A stretch of DNA of 64,000 bases from Rhizobium sp. Q54 (GTDB taxonomy: Bacteria > Pseudomonadota > Alphaproteobacteria > UBA2966 > CAIVPW01). Shown one piece after another: positions 482 to 27,446 of this stretch (position 1 is its first letter; each line of letters starts with the position of its first letter). The stretch covers positions 3,177-67,176 of the forward strand of contig CAMDPO010000008.1 of NCBI GenBank assembly GCA_945904955.1, written 5' to 3'. A program made the position numbers and the translations under genes. Under the pieces are notes generated by a model. That model did not search any database. It was not told the origin of the DNA and saw only the letters and a program-made list of their open reading frames with translations.

Positions 482-2439
482 CCAGGCATAGGTTCTTGCA
501 GATTTGCGGCGGCGCAGTCGCCGGGCCGTTGCTGGGCGCGGGCGGCGCCGCATGGGCGCAAGCGATTCCGGCGGGCGCCTTCAATGTGCGCGACTTCGGC
601 GCACGCGGGGATGGCCTTGCCAACGACAGTCCCGGCATCAATGCAGCGCTCCAAGCGGCGCAGGCGAAGGGCGAAGGCGGTACCGTGTTCCTGCCCGCCG
701 GCCGCTACGTGCTGCGCGGCGTGACCCAGGCGCGGCCGCGACCCATCTACACCCGCGTCGAGGACGGCATCGACCTGACGCGGGTAGCGCCGCAGGTGCG
801 CGCCCACGTCTTCCTCACCGGCCTATCGCGCCTCTCCCTGATCGGCGAGCGCGGCACTGTTCTGGTGTTGCGCGACGCTACCGCGTGCGGCATCTACCTC
901 GAGCGCTGCACCGACGTCGTGGTCCGCGACGTCACTCTCGACTTCGAGCCCCTGCCCTTTTCCCAGGGCACCGTGGTGGCGATCGACGCCAGCAATCGCA
1001 CCTTCGACTGGAAGGTCGATACCGGCTACCTGGAACCGCCGCAGGGGTACCTGGCGCTGGCGTTCGAGCCGGTCGGCGACACCAGCCGCGGTCTCGGCAC
1101 GGGTTCGGTCTTCCAGGCAGACGGCTCGCTCAAGGGGAGCGCCGGCGCCTCGGGCGACCTGCCGTTGGAACGCATGCAGGAACGGGGCGGCGGCATCTAC
1201 CGCACCGTGAGCGTCGCGCCACTCGGCGCCCTAGCGGCCGGCGATCGATTCGCCTGGCCGGCGCGGCCGCCCAACGGTGGCAGCGCCGTGGCGCTTTCGC
1301 TCAGCAGCCGCTGCCGCATGGAGAACGTCACGGTGCACAGCTCGCCGGCGACCGCGTTCGTCGCCAACGACTGCGAGGCGATCACGTTTCGCGGCTGCGT
1401 CGTCGAGCGGCCGGCCGGCAGCGACCGGCTGTTCGCCGCGAACGGTGGCGCGGTGCTGGTCAAAGGCAACGGGGGCGGACCGACCATCGAGCGCTGCCGC
1501 TTTCAGCACGTCGGCGACGACGCGGTGAACATCACGCAAACCGGACAGCGCCTGCTCGCCGTGGTGAGCCCGACCGAGCTCATCGTCGACTTCGACGCGT
1601 CGCAGCTGTTCCGCGAAGGCAATCGCATCGCCGTGCTGTCCCAGGCCAACGGACGCACGCGCGGCGACGCGCGCGTGCGCGAGGCGGCGCTCGTGCGCTT
1701 CCGCGACGGCCGCCTGGCGCGGCGCCTCGTGCTCGACCGCGCCGTCAACAGCCTGGTGGCGGTCGACGACCTCGACCTGCCCGAGATTCCGCCGTTGGCC
1801 GAGGGGCGTGACCGCACGACTCCTTTGGCGAAGCGGCCCGACATCGTCGCGGATGTGGACCTGCTGGGCAGCGGCTTCGTTGTCCGCGACACGACGTTCG
1901 CGAATCATCGCGCCAGCGGTATTCGGACCTGCGCGAGCGATGGGACGATCGAGAACTGCCGGTTCACGAACCTCGCCGGCCACGGCGTCCAGATCGGCAT
2001 GGATCTGAGCTGGCCCGAGGTCTACCACCCGCAACGCCTGACCCTGCGGCGCAACACCTTCACCGGGATCGCCAACGGCGCCAACGTGTGGCTGCGCACG
2101 TTGCTCGGCAACGGCGAACAGGCGGAGGGCTTGGCGAACCAGAACGTCACGATCGAGGACAACACGTTCACAGGTTTCGGCGCGCGCGCGGGCGGGATCG
2201 CCATCGCGGCGGTGACGGTGAGCAACGGTCAGGACGTACGCATTCGTGGCAACACCTTCGGGGCGCCCGACCCGGCACAAACGCCGGCGCCGCGCGCGGT
2301 GCGCGTGGACTTCGCCCGGGATGTGGTCGTGGAGAACAACGCGGCGGTGCAGCGCGATCGCACGATCGACCCGTTTCAGGTCACGGCACGGGCCGATCGC
2401 GCCACGGTGCGGGTGCAGCGCAACCGGCTGACGCGCTAG
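475..2439 (+). CDS. secreted right-handed beta-helix protein (pectate-lyase superfamily, Pectate_lyase_3/GH28-like)
   Basis: N-terminal signal peptide with a Tat-like TRHRFLQ motif and an AWA/QA cleavage site. The motif NVRDFGARGDGLANDSPGINAALQAA matches the N-terminal signature of the pectate-lyase superfamily. Later sequence repeats short beta-helix (PbH1-like) segments. Confidence 0.6.
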   Translation: MLTRHRFLQICGGAVAGPLLGAGGAAWAQAIPAGAFNVRDFGARGDGLANDSPGINAALQAAQAKGEGGTVFLPAGRYVLRGVTQARPRPIYTRVEDGIDLTRVAPQVRAHVFLTGLSRLSLIGERGTVLVLRDATACGIYLERCTDVVVRDVTLDFEPLPFSQGTVVAIDASNRTFDWKVDTGYLEPPQGYLALAFEPVGDTSRGLGTGSVFQADGSLKGSAGASGDLPLERMQERGGGIYRTVSVAPLGALAAGDRFAWPARPPNGGSAVALSLSSRCRMENVTVHSSPATAFVANDCEAITFRGCVVERPAGSDRLFAANGGAVLVKGNGGGPTIERCRFQHVGDDAVNITQTGQRLLAVVSPTELIVDFDASQLFREGNRIAVLSQANGRTRGDARVREAALVRFRDGRLARRLVLDRAVNSLVAVDDLDLPEIPPLAEGRDRTTPLAKRPDIVADVDLLGSGFVVRDTTFANHRASGIRTCASDGTIENCRFTNLAGHGVQIGMDLSWPEVYHPQRLTLRRNTFTGIANGANVWLRTLLGNGEQAEGLANQNVTIEDNTFTGFGARAGGIAIAAVTVSNGQDVRIRGNTFGAPDPAQTPAPRAVRVDFARDVVVENNAAVQRDRTIDPFQVTARADRATVRVQRNRLTR

Positions 2440-14098: not shown

Positions 14099-14668
14099 TC
14101 AGTCCTTCGCGCGCTCCGAATAGCTGCCATCGACCGTCATCACGACGATGCGGGTGCCGACGTTGATATGCGGCGGCACCATGGTGCGCATGCCGTTCGA
14201 CAAGACGGCGGGCTTGTACGACGACGCTGAAGTCTGGCCCTTCACGGTCGGCTCGGTCTCGAGCACTTCGAGGGTGACGCGCTGTGGCAACTCGTAGCCG
14301 ACGGCGATGCCTTCGTGCAGGCTCAGGAACACCTTCATCTCAGGCTGCAGGTAGACGGAGTCATCGCCGATGAGGTCCGCTGGCAACGTCACCTGCTCGT
14401 AGTTCGAGGTGTTCATGAAGTAGAAGCCGTCGCCGTCGCCGTAGAGGAAGGTGTGCTCCTTCTCCTCGACGTGGGCGCGCTCGACCTGTTCGGTGGTGCG
14501 CCAGCGCTCGGCGATCTTGACGCCGTCGCTCAGACGCCGGGCGTCGATCTGGGTGACCGGGGTGCCCTTGCCGGGATGGATGTTCTCGGCCGTCAGGATG
14601 ACGTAGAGCTTGCCCTCCAGGTCGATGATGTTGCCCTTGCGAAGCGAGCTGGCGATGACTTTAACCAC
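14099..14668 (-). CDS. efp: elongation factor P
   Basis: 189 aa. It carries the conserved PGKG loop that holds the modified Lys34, which is the beta-lysylation-type EF-P. Confidence 0.9.
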
Positions 14669-14742
14669 GATTGGCTCCCGGCCTTATCCGTGCGTTTCGG
14701 CGCCGCACGATACTGATCCTGGCGCGCACCGCCAGTGCTTTG

Positions 14743-15801
14743 ATGGCTGACCGGCGCATCTCCCCTGGCGCCGCCCGTCCCTCCCCGTGGTGGGACAGGG
14801 ATCGCCATGCCGACCGTAGGCCCTTCCTTTTGGCCCGGGCACGCATAGCCACGGCCGTTCGCAGCTTCTTTGCCGAGCGCGGATTCCTCGAGGTGGACCC
14901 CGCCGCCCTCGCCGCCTCGCCCGGCAACGAGACCCACCTGCATGCGTTCCAAACCGAGGCGACGGACGAGGGCGGAGAGCGCCGCAGCCTCTACCTGCAC
15001 ACATCGCCCGAGTTCGCCTGCAAGAAGCTGCTCGCCGCCGGGGAGCGGCGCATCTTCAGCTTCGGCCATGCGTTCCGGAACCGCGAGCGCGGGGCGTTGC
15101 ACCATCCCGAATTCACGATGCTCGAGTGGTACCGCGCCGAGGAGCCCTACGACACGATCATCGCCGACACCATCAGCCTGGTGCAGAGCGTGGCGCGGGC
15201 GGCGCCGGCGATCTCGCTGCGGCACCGCGAGCGCAGCCTCGACCCGTTCCAGCTTGCGGAGCGCATCACCGTCGCGACCGCGTTCGCGCAGCATGCCAAC
15301 ATCGATCTGACCGCGTGCGCCGAACGCGCTGCCTTCGCCGCGGCGGCGCAGCGCGCGGGCGTGTCGGTCGCGGCAGACGACACCTGGAGCGACATCTTCA
15401 GCAAAGTGCTGGTCGCCAAGGTCGAGCCACGCTTGGGCGATGGACGCCTATGCGTTCTCGACGAGTATCCGGTGAGCGAAGCCGCCCTGGCGCGGCCGAA
15501 GCCGAAGGATCCGCACGTTGCCGAACGCTTCGAGATCTTTGGCTGTGGCGTCGAGCTCGCCAACGGCTTCGGGGAGCTCACCGACGCGGTCGAGCAGCGC
15601 CGACGCTTTGGCGAGGCGATGGCCGAGAAAGAGCGGCGCTACGGCGAGCGTTATCCGTTGGATGAGGATTTCCTCGCCGCGCTGGGCGCAATGCCGCCCG
15701 CAAGCGGCGTCGCGCTCGGCTTCGACCGCTTGGTGATGCTGGCTACCGGTGCGGCCAGGATCGACGACGTGGTCTGGACCCCGGTGCCCGACCATGCTTA
15801 G
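14743..15801 (+). CDS. epmA: EF-P-lysine lysyltransferase (PoxA/GenX, class II aaRS-like)
   Basis: Truncated LysRS-like catalytic-core motifs (FRNRERGALHHPEFTMLEWY, GVALGFDRLVML). I chose the start at MADRR. Confidence 0.75.
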   Translation: MADRRISPGAARPSPWWDRDRHADRRPFLLARARIATAVRSFFAERGFLEVDPAALAASPGNETHLHAFQTEATDEGGERRSLYLHTSPEFACKKLLAAGERRIFSFGHAFRNRERGALHHPEFTMLEWYRAEEPYDTIIADTISLVQSVARAAPAISLRHRERSLDPFQLAERITVATAFAQHANIDLTACAERAAFAAAAQRAGVSVAADDTWSDIFSKVLVAKVEPRLGDGRLCVLDEYPVSEAALARPKPKDPHVAERFEIFGCGVELANGFGELTDAVEQRRRFGEAMAEKERRYGERYPLDEDFLAALGAMPPASGVALGFDRLVMLATGAARIDDVVWTPVPDHA

Positions 15802-15810
15802 TGCGCCGCC

Positions 15811-16890
15811 ATGAGTACCCCGAAGACCCTGCGCTCGGTGCCGGCCCTCGCCGCCGCCGGCCTTGTCGCCGCCGAGGATCGCGCTGCACTGGCAGAGGTC
15901 GCGGCGCGCTATGCCGTCGCCATCACACCCGCGATGGTCGACCTGATCGATCCGTCCGATCCGAACGATCCGATCGCGCGACAGTTCGTTCCGGACGCAG
16001 CCGAGCTCAAGACGGAGCTCGATGAATCCGATGATCCGATCGGGGACGAGCGTCACAGCCCGGTCGCCGGCATCGTCCACCGCTATCCGGATCGCGTGCT
16101 GCTCAAGCTTGTCCTGGTGTGCTCGGTGTACTGTCGCTTCTGTTTCCGCCGCGCCATGGTCGGCCCCGGCAAGGCGCAGACGCTCAGCACGGCGGAGATC
16201 GACGCGGCCCTAGCCTACGTGCGCGACAACCCGGGTATCTGGGAGGTCATCCTCACCGGAGGCGATCCGCTTGTCATGTCCCCGGCGCGCATGCGCCGCG
16301 TTCTGGAGACGCTCGCCACCATCGACCACGTGAAGGTGGTGCGCGTGCACACGCGCATCCCGGTGGTCGAGCCGGACCGCATCAACGCGACGCTCGTGGC
16401 GGCGCTGCGCGCCTCCGGCAAAGCCACCTATGTCGTGCTGCACGCCAACCACGCGCGCGAGCTGACGCCGGCGGCCACCGCGGCCTGCGCGCGACTGGTC
16501 GACGCCGGCATACCGATGCTGAGCCAGTCGGTGCTGCTGCGCGGCGTCAACGACGACGCGGCGACGCTTGAGGCGCTGATGCGCCGCCTGGTCGAGGCGC
16601 GGGTCAAGCCGTACTACCTGCACCATGCCGACCTCGCGCCGGGCACGGCGCACATGCGTACGCGCATCGAGGAGGGCCGGGACCTGCTGCGCCACCTGCA
16701 GCGCAGGGCCTCGGGGCTGTGTCAGCCCGCCTATGTGCTCGATATTCCGGGTGGTCACGGCAAGGTGCCGGTGGGGCCGTCCTACCTGCAGCCGGACATC
16801 GAGCCGGACTGCTATGTGGTCGCGGACCAGAACGGCCGCAGCCACCGCTACGCCGACACAGCCCAGCCGCGTCGCGGTCGCAAGCGCTAG
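15811..16890 (+). CDS. epmB: EF-P beta-lysylation lysine 2,3-aminomutase (KamA family)
   Basis: Radical-SAM CSVYCRFCFRR motif with KamA-like architecture. It is adjacent to epmA and efp. Confidence 0.8.
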   Translation: MSTPKTLRSVPALAAAGLVAAEDRAALAEVAARYAVAITPAMVDLIDPSDPNDPIARQFVPDAAELKTELDESDDPIGDERHSPVAGIVHRYPDRVLLKLVLVCSVYCRFCFRRAMVGPGKAQTLSTAEIDAALAYVRDNPGIWEVILTGGDPLVMSPARMRRVLETLATIDHVKVVRVHTRIPVVEPDRINATLVAALRASGKATYVVLHANHARELTPAATAACARLVDAGIPMLSQSVLLRGVNDDAATLEALMRRLVEARVKPYYLHHADLAPGTAHMRTRIEEGRDLLRHLQRRASGLCQPAYVLDIPGGHGKVPVGPSYLQPDIEPDCYVVADQNGRSHRYADTAQPRRGRKR

Positions 16891-17430: not shown

Positions 17431-17818
17431 GGGCGCGGATGTTCCTGGAGAGCCACCGTTCAAGTCAAGTGCTGGAGTCGGCCGGACGCCGCACGCCTAC
17501 CGCGGCCGCCATCGACGCCGGCGGCGGTTGCTGCCCGGCAGGGATTGCCGCGCGGCAGAGTCTGCCTCCCCTGAGCGCTCGGTAATCCGCTGTATTGACA
17601 CGACTTTTCGTCCGCATCGGGCGGCCTCCTCCTTGCACCCGATCGACGACCGCACAGGCCTGCCCATGGGGATGGGGACCTGCGGCGACGGCTGAGCCCA
17701 GAAGCCGAATTCGCGACGGGACTGCACGCGGCCGCCTAGCCGAGCACAGCCCCTAGACGCCCTGTTCTCGTGATGCCCGTGGAGTCGCCTGCTCCACGTC
17801 GCTCGCGGCGGAGCAGCC

Positions 17819-20800
17819 ATGCCCGGCGTCGGCGTTCTTTTTTCGCGTTTCGGGGGTCAACACATGACGAGCTTGCAATTCACTCACGGCGCCGCGTCCA
17901 GCATCGCCAACGGCATCAGCGGCGGCGGCTACGAGCTCAACGGCCTGCACACCAACAGCGGCGGCAACTATCTGTCGCTCGCGCGCGATCCGCTCCTGTT
18001 CGGACAGGACCAGCTGTCGATGGGCGTGGCGTTCAAGGCCGCGACCGCCGGCAAGGGCGGAACGCTTTTCAAGATTCACACGGCGCTGCAGATCGACATC
18101 GGCAACGACGGTCAGGTCACGTTCAACCTGATGGGCAACAGCGCCGCCGAAAAGGGCGTGATCAAGTCGAGCGGCCTGACGACGGCCGATGGCGGCTGGC
18201 ATCACTTGGCGCTGTCGTACGACGCGGTCGCTGGCGCGATGATCGGCTACGTCGACGGCGTCGCGGTCGGTCAGATCGCGGTGAGCGCGGCGACCAAGGT
18301 TGCCGAAGCGTGGGATCCCACGTTCGGTGATCAGTGGGGCAAGGGTTTCGCCGGCACCATCGATAACCTCGAGATTCACGGAACGCCGCTCACGGCGCCG
18401 CAAGCAGCGGCGCAATACCAGGCGGTCCTGCAACAGCTCGACGTGGCGCCGCCACAGCTGGTGCGCCTGACGTTCGACAACGGCGCCATCGCCGACACCT
18501 CGGGCAACAACCTCACTGTGACGGCAGGCAAGGTCGAGAGCATCAGCGACGGCGCCTACTACCTGAACGGCAAGGCGACCGCCGAGGGCGGCAACCACAT
18601 CGCCCTCGCCCGGCACGCTTCGCTGTTCACGAAGGACGAGTTCACCCTGTCCATCGACTTCAAGTCGGCGGACGCCGGCGTCGGCGGCTCCTTGTTCCGC
18701 ATGCACACGGCCATGCAGGTGGACGTCACCGCAGCCGGCGACGTCTTCATGCGCCTGGTCAAGAACGCGGCAGGGGAAAGCGGTCAGATCAAAGCCGTGG
18801 CGCGCGTCGCCGACGGTGAGTGGCACAATGTGACGGTCAGCTACGACGTGGCGGCCGGCAAGATGACCGGCTACGTCGACGGCGTCGCCTACGGCACGAT
18901 CAACGTGTCGGCGCCGACACTGGCGGCTGCGTTCTGGGACCCGATGGTCGGCAGCCCGTGGGCCGGCGGCTTCCGCGGTTTCGTTGACAACGTCACGATG
19001 ACGGACGCGGCCTTGCCGCCCACCATCAATCCCAAGCCCGTGGCCGGCGCCGACATGGCGCACATGCGCGAGAACACCTCGCTCACCCTGACGGCGGAGA
19101 AGCTGCTCGCCAACGATCATGACCCGCAGGGCCAGGCGTTGAGCATCACCGACGTGAAGATGGCCTCCGGCCAGGGCACGGTGGCGCTGGTCGACGGCAA
19201 TGTGGTGTTCACTCCAAATGCCGACTGGCACGGCGTCGCGACGGTGGAGTACACGCTGCGCGACGCGATGCGCGCCAAGGACACCGGCGTGGTGCGCATC
19301 GAGGTGGCGCCGACCGACGCGGACGCACCCGTCGCTCCGCTGGCCTTCGCGAGCGCCATGACCAGCGGCGAGACGATCATCGTTGGCAGTTCGGCCGAGC
19401 TGCTCGCGGCGCTGCGGGGCGTGCACGGCGGCGAGACGATCCTGCTGCGCTCGGGCGTCGACTACAAGGCGATCGTGACCGGCGTGCCTGCGCATGCAGC
19501 ACAGGTGACAGTCACTTCGCTCGATCCGAACGACCCCGCCACCATCGTCGGCCTCGATCTGCGCGCGGTCACCAACGTCACGTTCTCAAATCTGCGCTTC
19601 GCATTCGAAGGAACGCCGGTCCAGTGGCAGACCGACGTCGTCGTCAGCGGTGGCGACGGCATCCGCTTCGCGCACAACGTCTTCAAGGGCGTTGCCGAGG
19701 GCTACGTGCCGGTCGGCACCAGCACTGCCGAGAGCATGATGTCGGTGACGAACACCAAGAATTTCGTGTTCGAGCACAACGAGGTCAGCAACTTCTTCCA
19801 CGGCATCGGCGTCGGCAAATCGGAAAACGTGATTATCCGCGACAACGACATCCATGAACTGCAGGGCGACGGCCTGCGCTTCTCGCAAATGAAGAGCGTG
19901 CTCATCGAGAACAATCGCCTGCACGACTTCCTCGGCTCGGACGCGGCCGTGAACCACAACGACTACATTCAGTTCTGGACCGCGAGCACGACGGCGCCCA
20001 GCACCGACATCGTCATCCGCGGCAATGTCCTCCTGAGCGGCGACTACCAGCCGCAGGCGATCTTCCTCCGCGACGATCAGGGCGATGCGGGCGTGACCGG
20101 TCTGCGCTACCAGCGCGTCACGATCGAGGACAACGTCATCTACAACAGCAACGCCCACGCCATCACGACGATCGGCGCGGACGGCCTCACCATCCGCGGC
20201 AATACGATCCTGGAGCACCCGGCCGGCAGCGCCATCTCGGCCATCAACGTGACCAAGGCCACCGGAGTCGTCGTGTACGACAACGTTGCGCCGCGCATCG
20301 AGGTCGGCGCCACCAACCAGGTCACCCGCCTCGACGGCAACGTCGTGGTGCAGGACGCCTACGCGATCAACCCGGGCTATGTCCCCGACCTGTTCGTCAA
20401 TCCGACGCAAGGCACCGGCATCAGCCTCGACGACCTGTTCGTCCGGCCGGACGGTGCCTTGGTGCGTGCCGACGGCAGCGCGGTGGGCTCGGACCTGCTC
20501 CATCCCGGCGCAACGCCCGACCAACTGACGGCCGTGTTCACCGCTGCCGCGAGCCGCGGCGCCGACGGACGCACCACGCTGTCCTTCGATGCCAGCCACA
20601 CCGCCAACCAGGACGGCTACGTCCACGGCAACCACGCCACGTTCTTGTGGGACTTCGGCGACGGCAAGACCGAAACCGGCCGCTTCGACAGCCACACCTA
20701 CGCCAAGGCCGGCGACTACCAGGTCCTGCTCACGGTCTTCCACAATGACGGCAGCACCGACACCGCCCGGCTGCACGCCAGCATCAAGCCTGAGCTGGCA

Positions 20801-20866
20801 GCGGCGCTGGACTTCGACGACGGGCTGGCCTTCCAGCACCACAGCGTCGGCGAGGTTTGGGGCTAG
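17819..20866 (+). CDS. large multidomain protein: 2-3 LamG/ConA-like domains, a cadherin/Big-like domain, a parallel beta-helix (PbH1 repeats) and a C-terminal PKD domain
   Basis: Residues 1-400 hold repeated LamG-like blocks, each ending ...GYVDGVA.G.I.VSA. A run of PbH1-type repeats follows (IRDNDIHE, IENNRLHDF, IRGNVLL, IEDNVIYN, IRGNTILE). The C-terminus has a PKD motif (WDFGDGKTETGRFDSHTYAKAGDYQVLL). No N-terminal signal peptide is evident. An alternative start lies at 17864. Confidence 0.7.
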   Translation: MPGVGVLFSRFGGQHMTSLQFTHGAASSIANGISGGGYELNGLHTNSGGNYLSLARDPLLFGQDQLSMGVAFKAATAGKGGTLFKIHTALQIDIGNDGQVTFNLMGNSAAEKGVIKSSGLTTADGGWHHLALSYDAVAGAMIGYVDGVAVGQIAVSAATKVAEAWDPTFGDQWGKGFAGTIDNLEIHGTPLTAPQAAAQYQAVLQQLDVAPPQLVRLTFDNGAIADTSGNNLTVTAGKVESISDGAYYLNGKATAEGGNHIALARHASLFTKDEFTLSIDFKSADAGVGGSLFRMHTAMQVDVTAAGDVFMRLVKNAAGESGQIKAVARVADGEWHNVTVSYDVAAGKMTGYVDGVAYGTINVSAPTLAAAFWDPMVGSPWAGGFRGFVDNVTMTDAALPPTINPKPVAGADMAHMRENTSLTLTAEKLLANDHDPQGQALSITDVKMASGQGTVALVDGNVVFTPNADWHGVATVEYTLRDAMRAKDTGVVRIEVAPTDADAPVAPLAFASAMTSGETIIVGSSAELLAALRGVHGGETILLRSGVDYKAIVTGVPAHAAQVTVTSLDPNDPATIVGLDLRAVTNVTFSNLRFAFEGTPVQWQTDVVVSGGDGIRFAHNVFKGVAEGYVPVGTSTAESMMSVTNTKNFVFEHNEVSNFFHGIGVGKSENVIIRDNDIHELQGDGLRFSQMKSVLIENNRLHDFLGSDAAVNHNDYIQFWTASTTAPSTDIVIRGNVLLSGDYQPQAIFLRDDQGDAGVTGLRYQRVTIEDNVIYNSNAHAITTIGADGLTIRGNTILEHPAGSAISAINVTKATGVVVYDNVAPRIEVGATNQVTRLDGNVVVQDAYAINPGYVPDLFVNPTQGTGISLDDLFVRPDGALVRADGSAVGSDLLHPGATPDQLTAVFTAAASRGADGRTTLSFDASHTANQDGYVHGNHATFLWDFGDGKTETGRFDSHTYAKAGDYQVLLTVFHNDGSTDTARLHASIKPELAAALDFDDGLAFQHHSVGEVWG

Positions 20867-20888
20867 ACGCCTACGATCCGTTGGCTGG

Positions 20889-20917
20889 GGCGCGTCAAAG
20901 CGCCGCGCCCCAGCGGC
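20889..20917 (+). terminator. GC-rich hairpin (10-bp perfect stem) after the large gene, with no U-tract
   Basis: The sequence ctggggcgcg-tcaaagcgc-cgcgccccag lies 23 nt after the stop at 20866. Confidence 0.3.
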
Positions 20918-21046
20918 GACGCTCGCTCGACGCAAACCTGTGCATCCCGTGAAATCAGCTTTGTTCCCGTGCCGAGTGCCGCTACGCTTGACCGCAGGGG
21001 GCGTCCCGTGCCGAGCTTCTTGGCGCGCGGAGACACACGGATTTTC

Positions 21047-22555
21047 ATGAACGAGACCACCCCAGCTTCAAACCGCCCGGTAGCGGAGCGGCTGACGAGC
21101 GCGCTCGCCCTGAACCTCGCCAAGGCGTCCGCCTTCCTGGCGACGGTCTCGCTGAACGAGCCGCGCCACGGCAACGGCCGCGCCGCCGCCTGGTTCGTTG
21201 CCGCCCTCGGCGCTAACATCCTGACCGCGGGCGCATATTTCGTCGTCAGCACCCCGGTGGCCAAGTTCTTCGAGGTCTTCGGCTTCTTCCCCTCGCCGGT
21301 TTGGCCGGGCGCAGGCATCGCGCTGTTCGCCGTTCTCGTCGGCGGCTGGACCGTGGCGCCCGGCATCTTCATCGGCTCCTCCGCCGCGAACGCCGTCTTG
21401 TTTGCGGCGCCCGCTGAACCGATGATCCTTATTTCGATCACCAATACGCTAGGACCGATTGTCGGCGGGCTCCTGCTGCGGCGGTCGTTCCCCCCGCGCT
21501 CCCCCGTCTTCTTGCTGGGCGACGTCGGCCGCTTGATGCTCTATGGCGTGCTGGTGCACGCCGGCATCACCGCGCTGGGCGGCACCCTGGCGCAGACTCT
21601 GTTCAACGATACGACCGACGCACCGTTCCGCCTCTTCGCGGCGTGGTTGCTGTCCGATGCGGCCGGAGTCTTGCTGATCGGCGCACCCGCAATCCTGTGG
21701 TGGATCGACCGCCGCGTCATCGAGCGGCAGCATTGGCGCGAGGTCCTGATCGTCTCGGTACTCGCCCTCTCGGTGGGTGGGTCGCGCCTGCTGCTCCCGG
21801 AGGGCTACGAGCTGCCGGCCGGCGTTCCGGTGCTGGTGACGATGTGCTGCGCTTGGCTGGTGGCGCGCTTCTATCCGCGCGACGCCACGACCCTGTTTGC
21901 GCTGGTCCTGGCGCTCGTTCTGGCGGCCAACATCATCAAGCCAGAAGGAATGCTGGCGTTCAGTCCGTCGAACGTGAGCTGGTTCCTCGGCATCGCCGCG
22001 GTCGTCGGCATGCTCAACGTGCTGCTCATCGGCGCCATCATGGAAGAACGCGCCGTGGCGACGCGGCGCATCTCCCAGGACTTGGTCACCGGACTGCCGA
22101 ACCGCGCCAGCTTCCTGTCCGTCGCGGCGCGCGAGCTCGGCCGCGCTCAGACCTATAACCGGCCGCTGTCGCTGATCACCTTCGATATCGACGGCTTCCG
22201 CTCGGTCAATGCGCGTCACGGCAGCATGGTCGGCGACGCGGTGCTCAACGCGATTGCCGGACACGCACGCGCCTGGTTGCGTCCGCTCGACGTGCTGGCG
22301 CGCATCGGCGACGACGAGTTCGCCATCCTGATGGTCGAGACGGATCAGAAGTCCTCGGCGGCGCTCGCCGAGCAGCTGCGCGTCACCATCGCGACGACCC
22401 CCATCGAGATCAACGGTGCCGTCGTCGAAGTCACCGTCAGCATCGGCGTCACCGGCGGTCGCTCCGGCGATACGATCGAGTCCGTGCTCGACCGCGCCAA
22501 CGCCTCGCGCCACATCGCCCAGCAGGCGGGCCGCAACCGAGTCGCCGCCGCCTAG
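21047..22555 (+). CDS. MASE1-domain membrane protein with a C-terminal GGDEF domain (degenerate A-site GDDEF, intact RxxD I-site)
   Basis: N-terminal multi-TM region with MASE1-like VWPGAGIALFAVL. The GGDEF-domain motifs read ...RPLDVLARIGDDEF. Confidence 0.75.
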   Translation: MNETTPASNRPVAERLTSALALNLAKASAFLATVSLNEPRHGNGRAAAWFVAALGANILTAGAYFVVSTPVAKFFEVFGFFPSPVWPGAGIALFAVLVGGWTVAPGIFIGSSAANAVLFAAPAEPMILISITNTLGPIVGGLLLRRSFPPRSPVFLLGDVGRLMLYGVLVHAGITALGGTLAQTLFNDTTDAPFRLFAAWLLSDAAGVLLIGAPAILWWIDRRVIERQHWREVLIVSVLALSVGGSRLLLPEGYELPAGVPVLVTMCCAWLVARFYPRDATTLFALVLALVLAANIIKPEGMLAFSPSNVSWFLGIAAVVGMLNVLLIGAIMEERAVATRRISQDLVTGLPNRASFLSVAARELGRAQTYNRPLSLITFDIDGFRSVNARHGSMVGDAVLNAIAGHARAWLRPLDVLARIGDDEFAILMVETDQKSSAALAEQLRVTIATTPIEINGAVVEVTVSIGVTGGRSGDTIESVLDRANASRHIAQQAGRNRVAAA

Positions 22556-22762
22556 CTCGCGCCACGGCGGGGTGTCGCGTCCAGCGCGCGCCGCCGCTTT
22601 TGTTGACATAGCGAAGTCACCGCTAGGTGGGCACCCACGCCAAGGGTTGCCACGGTCTTGCCCCGCCCCGCCCTCTCGGAACCGGCGACAGTTGGGTCTG
22701 GTAGCGCCCACGTCGCCGGGTTCCGGCGCAGTGGGCCGTTTCGTTCAGCAGGGGAGGTCCCT

Positions 22763-22996
22763 ATGCAGACCGAAGCCGGCAAGCTCGCGGCCTTGGATGC
22801 GGCTCGCAACGCGGCGTGCATCGCCGGGCGTTGGTATGTATTCCCGCCCGAGCAACGACTCCGCCACCTCCGCGTCGGCGACCCCGTGGAGGTGACGTAT
22901 GCGGAGCAGGGCGACCGCCGCAAAGTGGTCGAGATCAAGCTGGTCGGCGAAATAGCGGCCAGCCCGCCACCGGCTATGGACGAGCGCAGCCGCTGA
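22763..22996 (+). CDS. small conserved hypothetical protein (paralog A, 77 aa)
   Basis: An AGGGGAGG ribosome-binding site precedes the ATG. It is clearly homologous to the ORF at 24348..24544 (TExGK..LDA...A....W......L..L.....EVTY....G.RKVVE). High GC3. Confidence 0.5.
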   Translation: MQTEAGKLAALDAARNAACIAGRWYVFPPEQRLRHLRVGDPVEVTYAEQGDRRKVVEIKLVGEIAASPPPAMDERSR

Positions 22997-23606
22997 GGAA
23001 GATCGCCACCGCGGCCTCGACCACCGCTTCGATCTCCGCTGAAGAGGGCACCGGCGGCACGCCGAACAAGGCGCGCTTGTGGAGGTCGCCGGTGCTCATT
23101 TCGAGGAAGATGCGCGCGGCCAACGCGGGGTCGCGCACCTTCAGCTCGCGGCGGCGCTTGGCACCGGCGAGGTAGTCGCCGAGCCGGGCGGCCGCGACCT
23201 GGGGTCCCGCCGCGAACACGCGGCGCCCGAGCTCGGGGAAGCGCCCACTGTCGGCGGCGGCGACGCGAAACAGCGCGATGCTGCCCGGCTCGAGAAAGGC
23301 GGTCGCATACCGCAGGGCGAACGCGCGCAGTACTTCGGCCGGCGGACGGCCCGCTTCGATCGCGGCGTCGAGCGGCGCCAACATGCGCTCGCAGACGCCG
23401 GCGACGATCGCCGCGAACAGACCTTCCTTGTTGCCGAACTGGGCATAGACCGTGGCGCGCGAGCCGCCGGACGCGGCGATCACGTGATCAAGGGTCGCCC
23501 CGGCAAAGCCGTGCTCGAGGAAGGCCGCCGTGGCGGCGGCTAGGATCGCCGCGCGGCGCGCCTCCAGCCGGCCGACACGCACGCCGAGCTGCCCTGTCTT
23601 GCTCAC
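22974..23606 (-). CDS. TetR-family transcriptional regulator
   Basis: N-terminal TetR helix-turn-helix (RRAAILAAATAAFLEHGFAGATLDHVIAASGGSRATVYAQFGNKEGLF). Confidence 0.8.
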   Translation of the reverse strand: MSKTGQLGVRVGRLEARRAAILAAATAAFLEHGFAGATLDHVIAASGGSRATVYAQFGNKEGLFAAIVAGVCERMLAPLDAAIEAGRPPAEVLRAFALRYATAFLEPGSIALFRVAAADSGRFPELGRRVFAAGPQVAAARLGDYLAGAKRRRELKVRDPALAARIFLEMSTGDLHKRALFGVPPVPSSAEIEAVVEAAVAIFLSGCARP

Positions 23607-23614
23607 TCGGTAAG

Positions 23615-23635
23615 TGTACTGTATGGTACAGTACA
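23615..23635. promoter_or_regulatory. perfect 9-3-9 palindrome, candidate TetR operator
   Basis: TGTACTGTA-tgg-TACAGTACA sits in an AT-rich patch between the tetR start (23606) and the divergent gene at 23666. Confidence 0.5.
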
Positions 23636-23665
23636 GTTCAACAAGAAACTGGGAGTTGCGCGCTC

Positions 23666-24142
23666 ATGGCCGAGCCAAGCAATCCGGAGCACCTCGCCGA
23701 CACCGCGGCGCTGCTGCAGACTGAATCGGAGTTCCACCTCAGCTACGACGCGTCGGTGCCGTGCGTCGCGATGACCTGGCGCGGCTATCACACGACGCCG
23801 TCGTTCCACGAGAAGAACGAGCAGGTTCTGGCGATGATCAAGGAGCGCAAGGCGTCGCGCATGCTGTGCGACATCCGCCGCTTCCTGCTCATCAGCGCCG
23901 CCGACCAGGTGTGGTTGAGCGGCGACTGGCTGCCGCGGGCGATGGCGGCGGGATTGCGCCACTGCGCGATCGTCACGCCCGCCTACTTCTTCAACCAAGT
24001 CGCCGTGCGCAACGTCGCCGACCAGATCGACGCGCACGTGCTGCGCGTCGATCATTTCGAGTCGGTGGAGCAGGCGCGTCTGTGGTTGCAGCGCATTCCC
24101 GCAAGTAGAAGCATATCGCGCCTCAACGCGGCACCCGTCTAG
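23666..24142 (+). CDS. hypothetical protein (possibly STAS/SpoIIAA-like fold)
   Basis: 158 aa with high GC3. It is divergent from tetR and shares the operator. No confident family assignment. Confidence 0.45.
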   Translation: MAEPSNPEHLADTAALLQTESEFHLSYDASVPCVAMTWRGYHTTPSFHEKNEQVLAMIKERKASRMLCDIRRFLLISAADQVWLSGDWLPRAMAAGLRHCAIVTPAYFFNQVAVRNVADQIDAHVLRVDHFESVEQARLWLQRIPASRSISRLNAAPV

Positions 24143-24347
24143 GGTCACAGCACCTACACACTGCGGGACGCCGTTTGCTGCGAACGTGAGCGTTGCTGCG
24201 CGTCCGCGCTAGCGCGGCGGTGACCTCACCCGCGCGGTCCTTTGCTACACCCATGTCACGGCCGCGCTCACGCTGGAGGACTGTCCTCGCTGGCGCGGAC
24301 AATCCGGTCCGCGCCATTGCCACACCTGGATCAGGCAGGGAGGCTGG

Positions 24348-24544
24348 CCGTGAAGACAGAACGAGGCAAGGTCACCGGACTGGATGCCACCAAGCGGGCG
24401 ATTCGCATGAACCGCAACTGGTACTACGCGTCCGAACAGGAACTCAAACGCCTGCGTCTGCACGACGAGATCGAGGTCACCTACGTCACCAAGGAAGGCC
24501 GCCGCAAGGTGGTCGAGCTCCTCATCCTCCCCGACGGCGACTAG
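24348..24544 (+). CDS. small conserved hypothetical protein (paralog B, 65 aa, GTG start)
   Basis: Homologous to the ORF at 22763..22996. A GGGAGG ribosome-binding site precedes the GTG. Confidence 0.45.
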
Positions 24545-24768
24545 GCCGGCTTGTGCCGGTCCAAGTCCTTCAAGAACTGCGTCAACAGATCCCGCACCGA
24601 CTGGCCTTGCTGGGCGGCGCCGAAGATCTCTTCGGCGTCGAGCAGGGCGAGATCGACGAGCTCGCGCGCGTCCTCGCGGTTGAGGGCGTTGCGGAACACC
24701 AGCCGCTGGATGAGATGGATCATCAGGAGCAGGGACGTGAAGCCGGGTGCGTCGAACTTCTCTGGCAT
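24541..24768 (-). CDS. hypothetical protein (75 aa)
   Basis: High-GC3 ORF starting MPEKFDAPGF. No family recognised. Confidence 0.3.
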   Translation of the reverse strand: MPEKFDAPGFTSLLLMIHLIQRLVFRNALNREDARELVDLALLDAEEIFGAAQQGQSVRDLLTQFLKDLDRHKPA

Positions 24769-24873
24769 TCTTGTCGGCCTTCTCTGGGCGGCACGTGGGC
24801 GTCGGGTTGACCGGGCGTGGGGCGCTGTCGAGCGCGTTCGCACCACGCGCGTTGGTTTGCTACCTTGGACGCC

Positions 24874-25341
24874 ATGCTACCAAGCACCATTCGCGCCGAG
24901 CCGCTGACCGCCGAGGCGTTTGCGCCGTACGGCGACGTCATCGAGGGCCCCAGCGCACCGGGCCGCGCCGACGACCTTGCTGCCGTGCTGGTCGGCAGCG
25001 ACGGGCGGCCGGGCGTCCACGTGCTGCGCGCCGCGAAGGGCGCGGCGCTGCCCCTGACCGTCGCGCGCATGGAGCGCCATCCGCTCGGCAGCCAGGCGTT
25101 CGTGCCCATGGGCAGCGGGCGTTTCTTCGTCGTGGTGGCGCCGGCCGGCGAGTTCGACCCCACCGCCATCCGCGCCTTCGTCGCCAACGGCCGCCAGGGC
25201 ATCAACTACAAGCCCGGCACCTGGCACCACGGCTTCCTGGCGGCGAACGCGGGCGACGACTTCCTGATGATCGAGCGGGCCGGTCCGGGGGAGAACTGCG
25301 ACTTCGCACACCTCGACAAGCCTTTGCGGGTCACCGGCTAA
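24874..25341 (+). CDS. ureidoglycolate lyase-like cupin protein
   Basis: The motifs ...MERHPLGSQAFVPM...GTWHHG... are typical of the ureidoglycolate lyase/AllA family. I chose the start at MLPSTIRAEP. Confidence 0.55.
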   Translation: MLPSTIRAEPLTAEAFAPYGDVIEGPSAPGRADDLAAVLVGSDGRPGVHVLRAAKGAALPLTVARMERHPLGSQAFVPMGSGRFFVVVAPAGEFDPTAIRAFVANGRQGINYKPGTWHHGFLAANAGDDFLMIERAGPGENCDFAHLDKPLRVTG

Positions 25342-25411
25342 CCAAGCTAGACCTTCGCGGTATCCCGTCCGGGCGCTGGCGGCGGCGGCCGATCTGTCGT
25401 CCTCTGCCGCC

Positions 25412-25633
25412 ATGATTAGAATCACTGCAATCGCCCTCATCGCGCTAGGCGTACTCGGACTGATCTACGGCGGGTTTACCTACACCCGCGATCGCGACGC
25501 CGCGAAGCTCGGCCCCATCGAAATCCAGGTCACGGACAAGGAGTTCGTGCCGGTACCGCTGTGGGCCGGCGTCGTAGCCATCGCCGCCGGCGCTGGCCTG
25601 CTCCTGTTCGGCATTCCGGGTCGCAAGGTGTAA
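25412..25633 (+). CDS. small two-TM membrane protein (DUF3185-like)
   Basis: 73 aa with two hydrophobic helices flanking the loop YTRDRDAAKLGPIEIQVTDKE. Confidence 0.4.
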   Translation: MIRITAIALIALGVLGLIYGGFTYTRDRDAAKLGPIEIQVTDKEFVPVPLWAGVVAIAAGAGLLLFGIPGRKV

Positions 25634-25646
25634 CGCCCTCCTCCCG

Positions 25647-27446
25647 CTACGAGGCGTTGCGCAGCAGGCGCTCGGGCGACTCCGGGTGCTGCAGCGACCA
25701 GGCGCGCGCGAACGCGCCGCTGGAGGCGATCAGCACGGACGGTGGTCCCTGCTCGATGATCTTGCCGTCTTCCATGACGATGACGCGATCCATGGCGCGC
25801 AGCGTCGACAGGCGATGCGCGATGGCGATGACCGTGCGTCCCGCCATCAGGCGCCATAACGCGTCCTGCAACGCGAGCTCCGTCTCGGTGTCGAGAGACG
25901 ACGTCGCCTCGTCGAGCACGAGGATGGGAGCGTCCTTGAGGAACGCGCGCCCGACGGCGACGCGCTGCTTCTCGCCGCCCGACAGCTTGACGCCCCTCTC
26001 GCCAACCACGGCGTCGTAGGCGCCCGGCCGCGCCAGGATGAACTCGTGGCAGCCTGCGGCCTTGGCCGCGGCTTCCACCGCGGCATCGTCGGCACCGGGG
26101 CGGCCGTAGCGGATGTTCTCGCGGATCGAGCGGTGGAACAGCTCGGTCGCCTGGGGCACCTCGCCGATCGACTCGGCGATGCTGGCCTGGGTGAGCGCGC
26201 CGATGTCCTGGCCGTCGATGGCAATGCTGCCGCCGGAGATCAGGTGCCGGCGCGTCAGCAGCTTCACCAACGTGCTCTTGCCGGCGCCCGAGCGGCCGAC
26301 CAGGCCGATGCGCTCGCCGGCACGGATGTCGAGATTGAGCGCGTCGAACACGCGGCGGCCGTCGGGATAGACGAACGACACGTCGTCGAAGCGGATGGCG
26401 CCGCCACGCGCCTGCAGCGGCTGGGCGTCGGGCGCGTCCGGGATGTCGTGATCGCGCGCCAGGGCATCGAGCGACTCTTTGAGGTCGCCGACGTGCTCGA
26501 ACATGTTGAGGGCCTCGTCGCCGAGCTGGGCGATCTGCAGGCCGATCTGCACGCCGACCGTAAGAATGGTGACGATGGCGCCGGACGTCATCGTGCCGGC
26601 GACCACCGACTGCAGCGCGACCCACGAGATCGCCGACAGGAAGCCCACCGACAGGAACAGCTGGACGACGCGCATGCCCGTCATGGCCATGCGCACGTCG
26701 CGCGCGCGGTAGTACTCCTCGAGGCTGGCGGGCTCGAGGCCTTCCTGCTCGCGCCGCCACGCGCCGAAGCTGCGCACGACGTCGGCGTTGGAGATGGTGT
26801 CGGCGATGCGCCCGGTGACGCGCGAACGCGCGCGCGCCGTGCGGCCGACAAGGTCGACGACGTGACGCGCCATCGGCACCGTCACCACGACGAACACGGC
26901 GGTGAAGGCGAGGAAAGCCAGCGCATAGTTCAGCGACACGGTGCCGAGCGTGAAGGCGCCGACCGCAGCGAAGGTGCCGATGCGGAAGAACGGCAGCGCC
27001 GATTCGAACAGGCCCGGCATCGACTGGCCGCCGCGGCGAATGCGCTGGTTGATGGCGCCCGCGAAGTTGTCGTTGAAGAAGCGCGTCGACTGGCCGAGCG
27101 TGTGGGCGAACAGCACGCGATCGACGATGACGCGCATCTTCGGCATCGTGAACGCGTTGGCGAACGTGTACATGCGCGTCAGCAGCGGCCCACCGAGCCA
27201 GGCTGCGACGAGCAGCGAGAAGTAGAACGGGATCTCGTCGTAGCGCTCATGGGCGACGACGTCGATGAGCGTGCCGACGGCGAGCGGCGCCAGCGCCTGC
27301 AGGCCGTGCCCGAAGATGGTCAGCGACAGCATCGCGGCCGCGCGCCCCGGCAACTGGCGGACGACCCACCAGGTGAAGGCGAACGGGGTGCGCGGGAAGA
27401 TGGGCTCCCCGGGACGGGACAGCGGCGGACGCAACGACGGACTCAT
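25647..27446 (-). CDS. ABC exporter, fused transmembrane and ATP-binding domains (MsbA-like)
   Basis: A six-TM exporter domain is followed by Walker A (GRSGAGKST), the signature LSGGEKQRVAVGRA and Walker B (ILVLDEATSSLD). Confidence 0.8.
   Translation of the reverse strand: MSPSLRPPLSRPGEPIFPRTPFAFTWWVVRQLPGRAAAMLSLTIFGHGLQALAPLAVGTLIDVVAHERYDEIPFYFSLLVAAWLGGPLLTRMYTFANAFTMPKMRVIVDRVLFAHTLGQSTRFFNDNFAGAINQRIRRGGQSMPGLFESALPFFRIGTFAAVGAFTLGTVSLNYALAFLAFTAVFVVVTVPMARHVVDLVGRTARARSRVTGRIADTISNADVVRSFGAWRREQEGLEPASLEEYYRARDVRMAMTGMRVVQLFLSVGFLSAISWVALQSVVAGTMTSGAIVTILTVGVQIGLQIAQLGDEALNMFEHVGDLKESLDALARDHDIPDAPDAQPLQARGGAIRFDDVSFVYPDGRRVFDALNLDIRAGERIGLVGRSGAGKSTLVKLLTRRHLISGGSIAIDGQDIGALTQASIAESIGEVPQATELFHRSIRENIRYGRPGADDAAVEAAAKAAGCHEFILARPGAYDAVVGERGVKLSGGEKQRVAVGRAFLKDAPILVLDEATSSLDTETELALQDALWRLMAGRTVIAIAHRLSTLRAMDRVIVMEDGKIIEQGPPSVLIASSGAFARAWSLQHPESPERLLRNAS

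Follow-up and report, generated by a model that had tools for sequence, protein, structure and literature searches.

A predicted NalC-type repressor–operator core with a STAS-like gene, flanked by two clade-restricted small genes for predicted OB mini-barrels in an uncultured alphaproteobacterium

In Pseudomonas aeruginosa, NalC represses the divergent PA3720-armR operon through an inverted repeat that was mapped by electrophoretic mobility shift assay (EMSA); armR follows PA3720, and its product is an anti-repressor of MexR (PMC3290565). The function of PA3720 is unknown (PMC6173428). Here we compare this system with a locus in a 64,000-nucleotide stretch of DNA (contig CAMDPO010000008.1, positions 3,177 to 67,176; 68% G+C) from a metagenome-assembled genome (MAG) deposited as Rhizobium sp. 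Q54, and we refer to this whole stretch as the window. The locus holds, in order, a small gene on the plus strand (gene A), a TetR-family repressor gene on the minus strand, a predicted operator, a gene for a STAS-like protein on the plus strand and a second small gene on the plus strand (gene B). Its likeness to the nalC locus lies in a TetR repressor of the same subfamily, a 9-3-9 inverted repeat with a shared core, a divergent first gene and a small-protein gene placed after that first gene. ArmR, the small protein of the P. aeruginosa system, is reportedly 53 aa long and is helical when bound to MexR. Our analysis indicates that the locus probably combines an old, widespread NalC-type core with two younger, clade-restricted paralogues, both predicted OB mini-barrels, that flank the core.

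The repressor gene (22974..23606, minus strand) encodes a 210-aa protein that matches TetR_N (Pfam E = 1e-11) and the AefR-like TetR_C_7 (E = 1.3e-30). Its closest solved structure is that of P. aeruginosa NalC (PDB 8ke8; E = 3.9e-31 over residues 15–202), and the two DNA-binding domains are ~68% identical when counted on the alignment. The predicted operator (23615..23635) lies in the 59-nt region that separates the divergent repressor and STAS-like genes, compared with ~205 bp in P. aeruginosa, and is a perfect 9-3-9 palindrome, TGTACTGTA-TGG-TACAGTACA. A sequence-only reading of this stretch, made before our analysis, had picked out both the palindrome and its possible role as the repressor's operator; the palindrome is indeed perfect, and its resemblance to an experimentally mapped NalC site (PMC3290565) supports the role. 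Aligned with that site (GAACTGTATCGTACAGTACTGT), which is contained in oligo NalC-1 of PMC3290565, the window sequence GTACTGTATGGTACAGTACAGT matches at 19/22 bases with the same 9-3-9 layout, the half-site and spacer reading AACTGTA-TCG-TACAGTAC for NalC and TACTGTA-TGG-TACAGTAC for the window. The palindrome occurs once in the window, where shuffled sequence gives an expectation of 0.00 matches, and five lineages of the clade share its core, GTACTGTA-N3-TACAGTAC, without change while the flanks diverge. It would overlap the -10-like hexamers of both putative divergent promoters, TATGGT for the STAS-like gene and, on the other strand, TACACT for the repressor gene. Placement of an operator over both divergent promoters is the usual arrangement in TetR autoregulation.

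The divergent gene (23666..24142, plus strand) encodes a 158-aa SpoIIAA-like protein of predicted STAS fold. It matches PF11964 (DUF3478) with 28.7 bits against a cut-off of 25, and 11 of the 12 members of its family match the same profile. A search of its sequence against the PDB gave no match. Its AlphaFold2 model has a predicted local distance difference test (pLDDT) score of 82.7, and in Foldseek the top structures were RsbS and SpoIIAA, with the DUF3478 structures 2q3l and 2ook also listed. The protein therefore resembles the single-domain PF11964 STAS proteins of the 2q3l and 2ook type, both in passing the Pfam cut-off and in its modelled fold; it differs from them in an extra N-terminal helix, and no gene for a partner kinase or phosphatase lies nearby. 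Its gene is a positional counterpart of PA3720, the position suggesting possible homology. Two PA3720 peptides that we translated by hand from published quantitative PCR primers (DAFPLV.. and LVLWLK., in the same frame of a 188-bp amplicon) fit positions D28-A29..V34 and W83-L84 of the STAS-like family, which lends the homology weak support. A tblastn search of plasmids for PA3720 returned only distant STAS/SEC14 proteins, and a scan of viral contigs for the NalC operator gave 0 matches.

The same trio recurs elsewhere. Among the related loci that we compared with the window (L001–L025), L018, L019/L020 and L021 encode more distant STAS-like homologues (52–68% identity), and these too lie divergent to a TetR_N/TetR_C_7 gene; each has a GTAC-rich palindrome just before the STAS start codon, and the genomic contexts are otherwise unrelated. 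Because of the repressor's family, the operator match, the conservation of the operator core and the recurrence of the trio in unrelated contexts, we assign the palindrome, the predicted repressor and the STAS-like gene to a widespread NalC-type module. This core is known in kind and is newly placed here in an alphaproteobacterium. The repressor gene and palindrome can thus be annotated as a NalC-type repressor and its operator, and the NalC-operator-STAS trio appears conserved beyond Pseudomonas, into Alphaproteobacteria. By analogy with NalC, a dimer of the repressor would bind the palindrome and repress both its own gene and the STAS-fold gene. NalC is released from DNA by chlorinated phenols, and if the likeness extends to ligand release, a small, probably hydrophobic ligand would free the repressor here.

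The two small genes flank this core. Gene A (22763..22996, plus strand, ATG start) encodes a predicted cytoplasmic mini OB barrel of 77 aa that ends in a C-terminal tail of 15 aa; it is convergent with the repressor gene, whose 3' end is overlapped by the final 23 nt of A. Gene B (24350..24544, plus strand, GTG start; 195 nt, giving 64 aa and a stop codon) encodes a second such protein. The predicted proteins share 27 of 61 residues (44%; BLASTP E = 2e-17), and tblastn found no third copy in the 64-kb window. The sequence-only reading had described the pair as paralogues, had placed A at its present coordinates, and had seen a divergent TetR gene and a STAS-like gene between the two as well as a gene-free leader and a strong ribosome-binding site before each; our searches bear this out (TetR_N/TetR_C_7 and PF11964 matches; leaders of 207 nt each with GGAGG-type sites), and only the start it gave B, at 24348, has to be moved by two bases.

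Comparison of relatives argues that A and B are genuine protein-coding genes under purifying selection. Orthologues of A are 75–100% identical, the identical protein being present on 7 contigs, and those of B are 62–97% identical, with the lower figure contributed by L016. Pairwise ratios of nonsynonymous to synonymous substitution (dN/dS) are 0.09–0.23 for A and 0.10–0.22 for B, and the start codons and Shine-Dalgarno sequences are conserved. The sequence-only reading would have fallen had the small frames lacked conservation or synteny in relatives; they show both, as these ratios and the gene order described below indicate. Nineteen columns are invariant in both paralogue groups: T3, E4, G6, K7, L11, D12, A13, W24, Y25, Q30, L35, R36, D39, E42, V43, T44, R51, R52 and K53. 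The predicted isoelectric point (pI) is 9.45 for B, which has no Cys, and a near-neutral 7.9 for A. One orthologue of A (P0009; 76 aa, L013 507..737) is named 'multidrug resistance efflux pump' by JGI, which is wrong for an OB mini-barrel and looks like annotation spill-over.

The family to which A and B belong is, on present sampling of sequence databases, very narrow and restricted to one clade. The Pfam profile search that the sequence-only reading had suggested returned no family for either protein at E ≤ 1, and NCBIfam gave no match. A HMMER profile of the family, run exhaustively against 1.84 billion representative proteins, found only two clusters of small proteins (one A-type and one B-type) together with weak matches to large repeat proteins. 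When 185,579 species genomes and 241 million metagenome records were scanned, they returned only 2 loci and 1 locus, respectively, all of them close relatives. Every family member traces to a single group of uncultured Alphaproteobacteria from fresh water, and 'Rhizobium sp. Q54' is the name under which MAGs of this group were deposited.

The fold of these proteins can be predicted with confidence. An AlphaFold2 model of B, built on an 11-sequence alignment, has a pLDDT of 91.5 and contains five strands (residues 2–12, 17–20, 23–26, 40–48 and 51–59) and one short helix (residues 29–34) in an OB-type barrel, in agreement with the OB-like barrel suspected from sequence alone. When this model was compared with the PDB using Foldseek, PilY2 (3tdq; PF14481) came first, with a TM-score of 0.84 and a root-mean-square deviation of 1.5 Å over 67 columns, followed by the CusF/SilF metallochaperones (TM-scores of 0.7–0.8) and then generic OB domains. 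PilY2 differs from B in sequence, with 9% identity, and in being a secreted protein of type IV pilus biogenesis; there are no pilus genes at this locus.

Profile comparison places the pair more closely. The weak profile matches include three secreted repeat proteins, of which P0022 has three DUF1344 repeats (Pfam E = 4.9e-22) and P0021 and P0019 carry CusF_Ec repeats. Aligned to those repeats with hhalign, the A/B alignment scores a probability of 96.8% (E = 2.8e-10, 55 columns), and when a reverse profile is built from the DUF1344/CusF_Ec repeats, no other open reading frame (ORF) of the window scores as well as A (E = 8e-7) and B (E = 0.0045). Additionally, the B orthologue P0012 matches CusF_Ec at E = 0.019 with 15.2 bits, below the cut-off of 27. 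Judged by these profiles and the modelled fold, A and B belong to the DUF1344/CusF-like OB superfamily as a distant branch that goes unrecognized by Pfam. With the periplasmic OB domains of DUF1344 (PF07076) and CusF_Ec (PF11604) they have in common a pattern of ~60 residues, G-x-V-x-x-(L/I)-D, a hairpin, Y, a short helix and (G/H)D-x-V-x-V-x-Y.

The branch has features of its own. Unlike the DUF1344/CusF_Ec domains, A and B fall under the Pfam thresholds and have no lipobox and no signal peptide; their N-termini read MQTEAGK and MKTERGK, barrel strand 1 begins at residue 2, and the in-frame sequence upstream of both starts is not conserved and carries indels. They also have invariant charged residues of their own (E4, K7, R36, E42 and R51-R52-K53). 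The metal site of CusF, made up of a His, two Met and a capping Trp, is absent, with no Cys, His or Met among the 19 invariant columns, and hhalign against a CusF sequence entered by hand gave a probability of 16%. Searched against all PDB chains at E ≤ 10, the A/B profile returned three unrelated matches, a designed-repeat protein (E = 0.0015, without any stretch that passes alone) and two weak MYND-finger matches, and no ArmR. Two papers were found to name DUF1344, both in passing. We take A and B to be a new branch within a known fold superfamily, very narrow in distribution and lacking the signal peptide. Both proteins seem too small and featureless to be enzymes, and their invariant surface residues (W24, Y25, R36, R51, R52, K53, E4 and K7) suggest that they act by binding a protein or nucleic-acid partner.

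The history of the locus sets A and B apart from the core. L009, L010, L013, L014, L022 and L023 preserve the order A-TetR-STAS-B. In L018, L019/L020 and L021 the TetR-operator-STAS trio stands without A or B; L021 reads TetR-STAS-p75, where p75 is the 75-aa gene that follows B in the window, with only 27 nt at the position of B, and downstream it shares p75, ureidoglycolate lyase and an ABC transporter with the window. In the sister lineage L001–L008, which is ~87% identical to the window in nucleotide sequence, a 223-nt deletion (window 22669..22891) removes part of the A leader and the first 43 codons of A but spares B, the repressor gene and the STAS gene. L017 retains of A only the seven codons that overlap the repressor gene, and its B lacks its ribosome-binding site and first 35 codons; the repressor and STAS ORFs are again intact. 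Since relatives have deleted one or both, A and B are, by this comparison, accessory and dispensable genes, younger than the core that they adjoin. The trio without A or B, together with these losses, means that there is no obligate four-gene unit. Of the single regulated module proposed in the sequence-only reading, the TetR-operator-STAS core thus stands, and the inclusion of A and B does not, as the core exists without them and neither has an operator upstream.

Several observations on these relatives may be recorded separately. The p75 frame (window 24541..24768, minus strand) is convergent with B, with which its stop codon overlaps by 4 nt, and has no Pfam or NCBIfam match. It is 92–95% identical in close relatives, 77% in L016 and 68% in L021, and its presence in the B-less L021 indicates that it is older than B and independent of it. 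We considered whether p75 might be a remnant of the C-terminal end of the TetR that moved with the duplication, and rejected this because the two show no similarity. In L016, an 85-aa plus-strand ORF has been called after B (530..787); tblastn finds the p75 homologue there on the minus strand (784..572), and the call is probably on the wrong strand. L017 (SXGR01166367.1, 1..3488), when aligned with window 17545..25934, joins ~18060 directly to ~22414 and so lacks most of a 1015-aa adhesin-like gene and most of a MASE1-GGDEF gene, both of which precede A in the window; the contig comes either from a relative rich in deletions or from a chimeric assembly. Truncated-A and intact-A lineages (L006 and L025, sample ERZ27280264) co-occur in one lake metagenome, so populations living side by side may be polymorphic for A.

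The regions upstream of both small genes are gene-free by ORF calls and contain conserved elements. That of A (22556..22762, plus strand, as are all features of the two leaders) includes a TTGACA -35-like hexamer (22603..22608), just after a GC-rich, TTTT-ending stretch behind the GGDEF gene, a GTCAC(C/A)GC motif (22617..22624), the conserved box TTGCCACGGTCTTGCCCCGCC (22647..22667), a hairpin formed by GGAACCGGCGAC...GTCGCCGGGTTCC (22678..22724) and a GGAGG ribosome-binding site (22753..22757) 5 nt before the ATG. Its blocks are conserved in L009, L015, L011 and L013; in L013 the hairpin part is absent and A is intact. That of B (24143..24349) includes a hairpin region after the STAS stop codon (~24164..24192), the 33-nt block TTGCTACACCCATGTCACGGCCGCGCTCACGCT (24242..24274), a second hairpin, GGCGCGGAC-AATCCG-GTCCGCGCC (24292..24315), and a GGGAGG site (24338..24343) 6 nt before the GTG. 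The 33-nt block is kept even in L016, whose synonymous divergence (dS) from the window exceeds 1, so that synonymous sites are saturated. Both leaders measure 207 nt in the window, and this equality is a coincidence, because those of L009 measure 193 and 212 nt.

The sequence-only reading had raised the possibility of a structured 5' leader common to A and B and had suggested that the two leaders be aligned for covariation. A shared structure finds no backing. Alignment and BLAST of the A leader against the B leader gave no similarity past chance, the best 21-mer of the window matching at 14/21, which is typical of shuffles; folding z-scores against shuffled sequence are -1.27 for A and -0.69 for B, no better than shuffles; and Rfam gave no match in the whole window at gathering thresholds and, at the locus, only two chance-level matches at E ≤ 10. 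The two leaders could thus not be aligned with one another, and what the covariation analysis yielded was modest support for local hairpins of the B leader, where 88% of cells are paired against 39–52% in slid controls, with 4 compensatory pairs in 6 sequences only. We also compared the A box with the start of the B block (consensus TTGCCACG.CC.TG.C.CCGC), which lie 116 and 108 nt, respectively, before the start codons and match at 15/21, a value reached by 2.9% of shuffles. As no operator or half-site occurs upstream of either gene and each has its own ribosome-binding site and conserved upstream blocks, A and B are most likely separate transcription units, and the conserved blocks are most simply taken as promoters and 5' untranslated region elements of these two units. 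By eye, none of the sigma-70, Caulobacter-type, sigma-54, EcfG, RpoE, ECF41 or pho-box sites fits the blocks in both sequence and spacing.

In the reading that we favor, an old NalC-type core with two younger paralogues alongside, the region upstream of each small gene would drive its expression, with B perhaps also reached by read-through from the STAS promoter, and both proteins would probably bind a partner rather than catalyze a reaction. Several points weigh against it. The link to DUF1344 comes from profile methods with shallow alignments, and the comparison set was picked from matches to the query profile. That A and B bind a partner is something we infer only. The A-TetR-STAS-B order is maintained over a dS of ~0.3–1, which could mean a functional tie. 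The conserved upstream blocks match no sigma-factor consensus that we tried, and a consensus scan found no promoter. Finally, there is no U-tract terminator between the STAS gene and B, so that the two may be co-transcribed.

The last of these points bears on a different reading, in which B, and perhaps A, would be the ArmR-like output of the module: release of the repressor would let B be transcribed together with the STAS gene, and B would then bind and modulate another regulator as ArmR does MexR. The arrangement of a repressor divergent from a gene in the PA3720 position that is followed by a small gene does mirror nalC and PA3720-armR, and the operator is nearly identical to the NalC site. 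The STAS-B junction, with no U-tract terminator, would permit such co-transcription, and the STAS-B adjacency is kept as far as L016, where B has fallen to 62% identity. We nevertheless consider this reading unlikely. The modelled B is an all-beta OB barrel unrelated to ArmR, which is helical with MexR, and no ArmR chain was matched by its profile in the PDB. B is set off from the STAS gene by the 207-nt conserved spacer, with its strongly conserved 33-nt block and hairpins, and it has a paralogue beyond the repressor gene. The module exists without B, and in L017 B is truncated while the rest of the module is intact. Furthermore, neither MexR nor a mexAB-type target was seen near the locus, and no MarR-type target or resistance-nodulation-division (RND) pump is present among the ORFs examined around it. 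The position of B, the one held by armR beside nalC-PA3720, is thus best treated as an analogy.

A related proposal, and one we hold to be about as doubtful, is that NalC/PA3720-type modules have recruited unrelated mini-protein outputs more than once, ArmR in P. aeruginosa and B here, with B later duplicated to give A. On this proposal, B would be released together with the STAS gene when the ligand is sensed and would bind another regulator or the STAS protein itself.

Somewhat harder to credit is the proposal that the two OB mini-barrels are basic proteins binding RNA or single-stranded DNA and regulated post-transcriptionally through long 5' leaders, as in the cspA family. CspA-family proteins are likewise small five-stranded barrels with multiple paralogues per genome and long 5' leaders that share a box, and the ~200-nt leaders here have conserved blocks, including the box 116 and 108 nt before the starts. 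The OB fold itself, the invariant W24-Y25 aromatic pair and R51-R52-K53 basic triplet, and the pI of B would suit nucleic-acid binding. However, CspA appears in the Foldseek list only at rank 45 (TM-score 0.58), behind PilY2 and CusF/SilF, which are not nucleic-acid binders, and A is not basic. Neither protein has the RNP1/RNP2 motifs or a Pfam match to the cold-shock domain (CSD), S1 or another nucleic-acid-binding family. The leaders fold like shuffles, and the similarity between their boxes is weak (p ~0.03). We therefore regard the likeness to the CspA family as an analogy only.

The sequence-only reading had also offered a stress or toxin-like pair. A toxin-antitoxin, stress or defence pair under TetR control has in its favor just the general picture of duplicated small genes beside a repressor, and we find it very improbable: A and B are paralogous to each other rather than toxin and antitoxin, they lie 1.4 kb apart as separate units of which either can be lost alone, neither has the operator upstream, and searches of PADLOC (best E = 0.019, a partial match) and PHROGs gave nothing significant. 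Least credible of all is that A and B are chance open frames, for while long chance ORFs are many in high-GC genomes, dN/dS is well under 1 in all pairs, relatives retain the starts and Shine-Dalgarno sequences, the fold is predicted with confidence and 19 columns stay invariant between paralogues that are only 44% identical.

We return, then, to a NalC-type core with two accessory neighbors. On present evidence we see an ordinary regulatory module accompanied by two accessory genes specific to the lineage, and the two hypothetical mini-proteins can be assigned to a cytoplasmic branch of the DUF1344/CusF-like OB superfamily. A specialist might take up only the analogy with the position of armR and the connection to PA3720 and DUF1344, both long-standing puzzles. 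If the analogy were true, a sensor module would repeatedly gain small-protein outputs, and there would be a handle on both PA3720 and DUF1344; if such outputs were indeed recruited more than once, B would provide the first function for a DUF1344-like domain.

Three neighboring features of the window deserve brief description. Directly upstream of A lies a gene for a MASE1-GGDEF diguanylate cyclase (20969..22555, plus strand). It is preceded by the gene for the 1015-aa protein mentioned above (17819..20866, plus strand). That protein, a probable surface adhesin or polysaccharide lyase, combines Laminin_G_3, cadherin-like, beta-helix and PKD domains. Further upstream (14099..16890), a gene for elongation factor P (EF-P) on the minus strand adjoins class-II tRNA-synthetase-like and radical-SAM genes, resembling the EpmA/EpmB-type set for EF-P lysylation, which is probably unusual for an alphaproteobacterial MAG that bears the name 'Rhizobium' in its deposit.

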